DNA of 64,000 nt from the IMG/VR virus record IMGVR_UViG_2537562189_000009. One strand, 5' to 3'. The position numbers and the translations under genes were made by a program. The notes under the pieces are model-generated. The model was given only the letters and a program-made list of their open reading frames with translations, was not told where the DNA came from and searched no databases. Of the stretch, positions 48,703 to 49,351 are shown in pieces. Position 1 is the first letter of the stretch. Each line of letters opens with the position of its first letter. This DNA is from a virus (Duplodnaviria; Heunggongvirae; Uroviricota; Caudoviricetes).

Positions 48703-48990
48703 ATGCCATCCAGACTGTATAAAGAGTTCATTCGCCATCTTGGGGAATCCGAATACATAAGGATTAAAATCTGGGAGGTGGCTCCAGCCGTTCTTGGTAG
48801 CCGCCATAACTTCAAATACAGCATGGCTTACGTTGTTGATGGTGTTTGCGTCATGCGCTACGACAACGAAAGAGGTAAAGGCGACCACAAACACATTGGT
48901 GCTCAGGAAATCAGTACCCACTTTGTTTCCATCGAGCAACTCATTGCTGACTTCCTCCATGATGTAGAATCCATTCGCAGAGGTGCCTGA
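48703..48990 (+). CDS. Hypothetical small protein (95 aa), first gene of opposite-strand moron
   Basis: Plus strand within minus-strand operon; overlaps next ORF by 8 nt. Confidence 0.55.
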   Translation: MPSRLYKEFIRHLGESEYIRIKIWEVAPAVLGSRHNFKYSMAYVVDGVCVMRYDNERGKGDHKHIGAQEISTHFVSIEQLIADFLHDVESIRRGA

Positions 48991-49351
48991 TATGAAAACA
49001 GTTACAATACGTATTGAATCAATGGATGCTTTCACGGCAGATGTGTTGTCTGCCTTTAAAGCGGTTGCCGAAGGAATGACGTCAAAGAACGAAAGCATCG
49101 TTTCATTCCCAGACTGGCAAATGATGCATAAAGTGCTTACCCCTAAGCGCATGGACATACTCATGGCGATGACTGGTGCCGGAGAACTGTCAATCCGTGA
49201 GATTGCCGCTCTGGTCGGGCGTGACGTAAAAGCCGTACACACGGATGTAACCGCACTGATTAGCAACGGCCTCCTGGAAAAAGGAGAAAATGGAACATCT
49301 TTTCCGTATGACGACATCCACTTTGATTTTACGCTGGGTAAAGCTGCGTAA
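48983..49351 (+). CDS. Putative winged-helix DNA-binding protein (122 aa)
   Basis: LSIREIAALVGRDVKAVHTDVTALISNGLL resembles wHTH recognition region. Confidence 0.5.
   Translation: MPDMKTVTIRIESMDAFTADVLSAFKAVAEGMTSKNESIVSFPDWQMMHKVLTPKRMDILMAMTGAGELSIREIAALVGRDVKAVHTDVTALISNGLLEKGENGTSFPYDDIHFDFTLGKAA

Follow-up and report, generated by a model that had tools for sequence, protein, structure and literature searches.

A probable TumE-family toxin-antitoxin operon with a winged-helix partner in a moron cassette of an inducible Stx1c prophage

The viral DNA stretch IMGVR_UViG_2537562189_000009 (IMG/VR; Caudoviricetes; 64,000 nucleotides, all of which we call the window) carries two small plus-strand open reading frames (ORFs) of 95 and 119 codons amid its minus-strand early-right genes. 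We consider it probable that the two make up a self-contained type II toxin-antitoxin (TA) operon belonging to the TumE superfamily, and that an inducible Shiga toxin (Stx) 1c prophage carries it as a moron cassette. The reading is built on family membership, a conserved operon architecture, operators that are conserved and covary with the partner protein, and cassette boundaries read from alignment. The pair can be recognised as belonging to a known kind and is not a new system, and public pipelines already recognise it: RefSeq/PGAP names the identical Escherichia coli genes "toxin-antitoxin system TumE family protein" and "HVO_A0114 family putative DNA-binding protein". Over the 1.4 kb queried, the window is a 100% match to the inducible Stx1c-converting phage phiSTEC1589-Stx1c (PQ600364.1), in whose GenBank record both ORFs are annotated as hypothetical. 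An earlier first-pass annotation, made from the letters of the window, had suggested a TA module in a moron position, and this suggestion is supported by the family membership of the first protein, the nature of its partner and the boundaries of the cassette.

The first protein, in which the first-pass annotation recognised no motif, proved to be a member of a toxin family. It matches the Pfam TumE family (PF20126, formerly DUF6516) with 53.7 bits (gathering threshold 23.4, E = 2.1e-14) over positions 6-81 of the 81-position profile, and PF20126 is present in 120 of 120 homologues among the matches listed. It also matches phrog_16135, a PHROG of unknown function. When 50 diverse homologues were aligned, twelve residues were invariant (H35, K38, Y39, D54, N55, E56, G58, G60, D61, H62, H64 and F84), and the window protein has all twelve. 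They form the motif YDNERGKGDHKHI, which the AlphaFold2 (AF2) model places on a beta hairpin. A strictly invariant motif of polar and histidine residues suggests an enzyme, and the residues of H-x2-KY ... YDNERGKGDHKH are likely to be its active site. The AF2 model of the 95-aa protein (predicted local distance difference test score, 95.1) is built of six strands with a single C-terminal helix and looks like a shorter version of the validated TumE fold, in which two helices pack on a seven-stranded antiparallel sheet (PMC10584680). Sequence and structure searches returned no solved structure resembling TumE, Foldseek found no match to the model among the BFVD viral structures at E <= 0.001, and the NCBIfam search gave no model match for this protein.

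The second protein had been taken for a winged helix-turn-helix (wHTH) DNA binder, and this assignment is borne out by its family, its model and the folds that the model resembles. It matches PF25212 (HVO_A0114) with 86.3 bits (gathering threshold 27.6), so that both products, when checked by profile search, lie above gathering; its PHROG, phrog_11214, is again of unknown function. The AF2 model consists of an N-terminal beta-alpha-beta segment (residues 1-40, low confidence) and a winged helix-turn-helix at approximately residues 42-112, with RDVKAVHTD as the recognition-helix motif. Foldseek matched the model to ArsR/MarR-type folds, the search of solved-structure sequences gave weak ArsR matches, and PADLOC-DB v2.0.0 gave a weak similarity to Csa3/CasR (E ~1e-6) at the level of the wHTH domain. 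Pfam gave no ribbon-helix-helix or RelB signal, and no metal- or ligand-sensing motif was identified in the protein. It thus resembles the HVO_A0114 and ArsR-MarR repressors in its winged-helix fold and in the dimer-type palindromic operators predicted here, but it differs from them in the extra N-terminal segment of about 40 residues, modelled with low confidence, and in its obligate linkage to TumE. NCBI entries for partners of this type, winged-helix proteins of 113-119 aa, are often named "glycosyl transferase family 1", which appears to be a propagated mis-annotation.

Both plus-strand frames bear the marks of coding sequence. We compared the pair with a 78%-identical E. coli variant and found that codon position 3 takes most of the nucleotide differences (38 of 59 in gene 1, 56 of 82 in gene 2), with amino-acid identities of 86% and 84%, a pattern that points to purifying selection in both frames. 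Because the products pass the Pfam thresholds and the differences are biased to the third position, we take the plus-strand genes to be the real ones. An antisense ORF of 213 aa (48676-49317) was rejected as a gene: it has no Pfam match, and its product is 62% identical in the variant as against 84-86% for the plus frames. The two genes do run against the surrounding transcription, as had been noted, with flanking genes that are all on the minus strand. They had also been described as overlapping, which would require gene 2 to start at GTG 48983 (8-nt overlap); we rejected that start on homology and on the position of the ribosome-binding site. Gene 1 ends with TGA at 48988-48990, 1 nt follows, and gene 2 begins with ATG at 48992, which we accept as the start because a GAGG lies 8 nt upstream, all homologues begin with MKT or MNT, and GenBank and RefSeq use the same codon.

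These data also bear on whether the locus might be an inactive remnant, that is, a decaying TA pair with a non-working toxin that the prophage carries passively. Toxin decay is common in the TumE family, as described below. Here, however, both ORFs are full length, the invariant residues are complete, third-position bias indicates purifying selection, and the promoter, the operators and both ribosome-binding sites are intact; we regard a remnant as highly improbable.

The two genes travel together. We surveyed about 140 loci, 66 of them on one-genome-per-species contigs (Enterobacterales, Alpha-, Beta- and Deltaproteobacteria, Acidobacteria, an actinobacterial metagenome-assembled genome (MAG), Chloroflexi and Thermodesulfobacteriota) and 78 on IMG/VR viral contigs. 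In every informative locus a winged-helix gene lies directly downstream of TumE on the same strand (126 were detected by tblastn, six more divergent ones by eye, and one is frameshifted in a MAG), and the toxin-first order is kept throughout. With about four exceptions the partner gene is intact, and no locus had an intact TumE without a partner gene. Searches started from the partner returned the same pairing. The distance from stop to start is typically -4, +1, +4 or -20, which indicates translational coupling. The locus therefore has what is generally found in a type II TA system: two short neighbouring genes that point the same way, are translationally coupled and stay together across loci. 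The sub-type to which the pair belongs is large: a profile search gave 2,032 cluster representatives at E <= 0.001.

Decay is asymmetric. TumE is truncated or absent beside an intact partner in about seven loci and at a Serratia chromosomal site, where three states were seen: an intact TumE, a 35-aa remnant and no TumE, with the partner intact in all three. The Serratia states that lack an intact TumE would leave an orphan antitoxin. Loss of the toxin alone, with its partner kept, lends indirect support to a partner that would neutralise TumE by direct binding. Relatives were found on 74 of 72,556 plasmids, many of which are large rhizobial or acetobacterial replicons, and one relative adjoins MqsRA and a transposase.

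The region upstream of tumE contains a predicted sigma-70 promoter made up of TTGACA (48648-48653), a 17-nt spacer and a TG-extended TATCCT (48671-48676), with an expected transcription start at about 48683. Two predicted palindromic operators, O1 and O2, each of 20 bp and with starts 28 nt apart, cover the -35 and -10 elements (Table 1), and the same placement of -35 and -10 within two operators recurs upstream of tumE in distant taxa. We found the two-palindrome arrangement in 31 of 65 upstream regions; among control windows drawn from the same loci it occurred in 8 of 419, and shuffling gave 0.2 of 65. Half-sites vary in ways that preserve the palindrome (TGTTGT/ACAACA, TGTTGG/CCAACA, TGATGT/ACATCA). 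In several lineages the change of the half-site from GTTG to GATG is accompanied by a change in the recognition helix from RDV(K) to RDF(R), as seen when partner residues 77-85 were aligned. This covariation is suggestive, as the lineages may share ancestry, and points to the winged-helix partner as the repressor that would bind the operators; from the pairing of GTTG with RDV(K) and GATG with RDF(R), partner residues 79 and 80 are candidate specificity determinants. Computationally, then, the locus shows the usual arrangement of TA autoregulation, with a predicted DNA-binding antitoxin and operators over the promoter. Enterobacterial copies have a leader of 17-18 nt with GGAG. In many non-enteric loci O2, which holds the -10, ends at the tumE ATG, implying a leaderless mRNA.

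The operators also bear on an alternative in which the pair is a non-toxic regulator: TumE would serve the winged-helix repressor as cofactor or modulator, and the two would control phage genes such as the adjacent antirepressor gene ant. The -35 of the ant promoter-like site lies 11 bp from O1, and the predicted ant start is about 57 bp downstream of the centre of O1, so that bound partner could in principle influence the ant promoter; the toxicity of the TumE sub-type found in the window is, moreover, argued by analogy. Yet pair and operators are conserved in the approximately 140 surveyed loci without an ant gene, so that it is the pair that the operators serve. The product of gene 1 scores above the Pfam threshold for TumE, a family whose six tested members are all toxic (PMC10584680), its invariant polar and histidine motif suggests an enzyme, decay strikes the first gene only, and the slot that the pair occupies is exchanged with other TA systems. 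The alternative is weakened by these observations, and we consider it improbable.

The TA operon of our preferred reading has to be measured against the family as it was defined. TumE-TumA was described by Durairaj et al (Nature, 2023; PMC10584680), and beyond that paper and its preprint we found no literature on TumE, the other matches that we opened being Tuma or tumefaciens artefacts. All six gammaproteobacterial DUF6516 proteins arrested growth of E. coli and were fully neutralised by their neighbours, and the Allochromatium toxin lowered the incorporation of 35S-methionine; an RNase activity of the family is proposed and unproven (PMC10584680). DUF6516 genes are mostly downstream of their partner, and the partner in the tested subcluster, 1a, is RelB-like (PMC10584680). 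The window pair resembles subcluster 1a in its PF20126/DUF6516 toxin, in its two-gene operon on mobile DNA, in a partner that is predicted to bind DNA and, by analogy, in the translation arrest that would be expected of it.

Several points weigh against our reading. In subcluster 1a a small RelB-like antitoxin is encoded upstream, whereas in the window the toxin comes first and the order is reversed. The downstream partner, a 119-aa winged-helix protein of the HVO_A0114 family (PF25212), is unrelated to the validated TumA. The toxin has 95 aa, six strands and one helix, compared to seven strands, two helices and about 110-130 aa in the validated toxins (whose antitoxins have about 75-105 aa; both ranges are estimated from the sizes of synthetic DNA; PMC10584680). 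In PADLOC-DB v2.0.0 no family matched the gene 1 product, the promoter of the pair is a consensus match only, and the terminator is weak. On balance we read the toxin as a member of the TumE family whose partner is not of the validated TumA type.

The cassette has sharp boundaries. In an alignment with the prophage of E. coli 05-3629, the left flank matches without a difference up to 48611 and in part as far as 48626, and identity resumes at 49356. Between the flanks the 05-3629 prophage has unrelated DNA with genes for HigB (PF05015) and HigA (HTH_3) on the same strand, toxin first. HigB is a ribosome-dependent mRNase. HigB-HigA thus resembles the TumE pair in gene order, in the DNA-binding domain of its antitoxin and in slot, strand and flanks, and differs from it in having no sequence or fold relationship to it. 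With boundaries at about 48626 and at 49356 and a different TA pair between the same flanks in a related prophage, the moron position assigned at the outset is upheld: the cassette is a discrete insert, variable between conserved flanks, with a promoter-like site and a weak hairpin as terminator. Its GC content gives no signal of foreign origin. The hairpin (49360-49380), which may act as a weak and perhaps bidirectional terminator, belongs to the right flank, which the HigBA-carrying prophage has as well.

We sampled seven prophages for the contents of this slot. Other Stx phages have only 48302-48626 in common with the window. The slot of 08-3918 and Stx2a_F765 contains a ParD-like gene, a hypothetical gene and HigA beside a full ant leader, and that of O104:H4 a RelE/ParE toxin and an HTH protein, followed by Doc and HokD; that of O104:H21 contains nothing, though the full leader is present. 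In divergent leader copies the promoter-proximal part is missing and there is no cassette. Across the seven prophages, the junction upstream of the ant promoter looks like a hot spot of TA exchange. The O104:H4 prophage has several toxin genes beside the ant leader, and its Doc-family toxin has a small upstream ORF.

Between ant and tumE lies a gap of 348 bp (48355-48702) that had been described as a divergent regulatory region of about 350 bp. The idea that all of it serves the pair is not supported: the pair's own share is only about 48627-48702, and most of the gap is the minus-strand leader of ant (~48390-48625). In this leader Rfam recognised a C4 antisense RNA and an isrK-like RNA that ends in a terminator hairpin (Table 1), and the a1/b1 target match was sub-threshold. 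Transcription of ant is predicted to start near 48589, exactly where the isrK model has its 5' end. This leader is P1 immI-like, with C4-icd-ant of P1/P7 and Gifsy-1 IsrK as its counterparts; the likeness concerns the neighbouring leader and lies outside the TumE pair, with which it shares a back-to-back promoter region. Of 5426 complete E. coli genomes, 669 have the ant leader (852 places in all) and 18 have the TumE pair. A 78%-identical copy of the pair lies in another prophage context, between ash and DUF4222/Rha genes. When 50,697 GenBank phage records were searched by tblastn, phiSTEC1589-Stx1c was the sole carrier of a TumE relative.

We infer the following mechanism, and with it the toxicity, neutralisation, lability of the partner, molecular target and biological role. 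In a lysogen, PR would be repressed and the sigma-70 promoter of the cassette free to give a bicistronic mRNA. TumE would be the growth-arresting effector and, by analogy with validated family members, would block protein synthesis. The partner would be translated by coupling across the 1-nt gap, and neutralise TumE by direct binding, probably via its N-terminal 40 residues. As a dimer it would bind O1 and O2, which cover the -35 and -10, and so repress the operon. If synthesis stopped, because the prophage was lost or another phage shut off the host, the partner would be the first to decay, leaving TumE to arrest translation. In lytic growth, N-antiterminated transcription from PR would cross the cassette antisense toward ant, nin and Q and would oppose expression of the pair.

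Two roles could sit on top of such a TA mechanism, and we hold both only tentatively. One is abortive infection or superinfection exclusion: in a lysogen, an invading phage would shut off host transcription, the partner would decay and TumE would halt translation before the invader could finish its cycle. The moron position of the cassette and a promoter of its own, opposite to lytic transcription, fit expression from a repressed prophage, the exchange of TA cassettes in the slot is what hot spots of phage-borne defence typically show, and relatives occur on the 78 IMG/VR viral contigs. On the other hand, PADLOC-DB v2.0.0 has no TumE model and the similarity of the partner to Csa3/CasR is weak, the literature that we searched held no link between TumE and phage defence, and many relatives lie on chromosomes and plasmids outside a phage context. 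The other role, to which we give the same standing, is addiction or stabilisation, in which loss or decay of the prophage region would be penalised, or simply a selfish cassette at a recombination-prone junction. The occurrence of relatives on plasmids, often large rhizobial or acetobacterial replicons, is consistent with this, as are the replacement of one TA cassette by another at the same junction and the stability on subculture of lysogens of the phage, which is inducible (PMC12029490). The paper that describes the phage does not mention the pair. The rarity of the cassette relative to the ant leader speaks against addiction, and the frequent decay of the toxin in chromosomal copies argues against a strong long-term benefit.

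The locus lies between the antirepressor genes and the replication module, as originally described, with ant and rha to its left and DnaC and O further to its right (Table 1). Between the minus-strand ORFs of 85 and 166 aa, some 300 bp (within 49660-50083) lack annotation; a 96-aa plus-strand ORF found there (49793-50083), which overlaps the 166-aa gene, has no PHROG match. The 05-3629 prophage has a plus-strand DUF4145 gene at the equivalent spot, so that 49660-50083 may be a second variable slot.

Table 1. Coordinates of the TumE pair, its control elements and its neighbours in the window
Feature	Position	Strand	Basis
tumE-like toxin gene, 95 aa	48703-48990	+	PF20126, phrog_16135, AF2 model, RefSeq name
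Candidate antitoxin and autorepressor gene, 119 aa	48992-49351	+	PF25212, phrog_11214, AF2 model, Foldseek
Exchangeable cassette, ~729 bp	48627-49355	+	Alignment with E. coli 05-3629 prophage
Predicted sigma-70 promoter of the pair	48648-48676	+	Consensus scan, 10/12 matches
Predicted operator O1, palindrome TGTTGT-N8-ACAACG, TGTTGTATTAATTGACAACG	48637-48656	.	Covers -35
Predicted operator O2, palindrome TGTTGT-N8-ACAACA, TGTTGTTATCCTTAACAACA	48665-48684	.	Covers -10
Shine-Dalgarno GGAG	48694-48697	+	5 nt before tumE ATG, read from sequence
Shine-Dalgarno GAGG	48980-48983	+	8 nt before partner ATG 48992, read from sequence
GC-rich 9-bp hairpin with A-tract and UUU flanks	49360-49380	.	Fold -18.5 kcal/mol, z = -2.5
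ant operon leader and promoter-like site, neighbour of the pair	48407-48625	-	Rfam, consensus scan
C4 antisense RNA	48407-48490	-	Rfam, 71 bits (gathering 45)
isrK-like RNA	48516-48589	-	Rfam, 54.9 bits (gathering 50)
Terminator hairpin of isrK-like RNA	48537-48521	-	
ant promoter-like site TTGACG-18-TATATT	48625-48596	-	
Left neighbours: ant (ORF6N/P22AR_C), rha, then ninB/E, rusA, ninH, Q	ant 47689-48354; rha 46788-47432	-	
Right neighbours: 85-aa ORF, 166-aa ORF, then DUF977, YdaW, DnaC, O	85-aa ORF 49402-49659	-	

The findings on this cassette do not overturn current understanding. What they add is the operator architecture with its covariation, the asymmetry of decay, the exact boundaries of the cassette and an apparent TA exchange slot beside the antirepressor promoter. 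They define a large TumE sub-type in which the toxin comes first and is followed by an HVO_A0114 winged-helix partner, with probable operators and a candidate specificity residue. A broader proposal, which we think rather unlikely, is that the junction just upstream of the ant/C4 promoter in Stx and other lambdoid prophages is a dedicated point of exchange for TA cassettes (TumE/wHTH, HigBA, ParD/HigA, RelE/HTH) at which TumE/HVO_A0114 is a functional abortive-infection system whose repressor would sit 11 bp from the antirepressor promoter; if it were true, the state of the TA system could be coupled to the control of prophage induction. For the Stx1c phage genome, two labels that read "hypothetical protein" give way to a specific, testable function. 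Since phiSTEC1589-Stx1c is the only GenBank phage record found to carry TumE, and the phage can both be induced and form lysogens of K-12 strains, it offers a practical system in which to ask what TumE does for the phage or the lysogen, the readouts concerned being defence, prophage stability, induction and the release of Shiga toxin.

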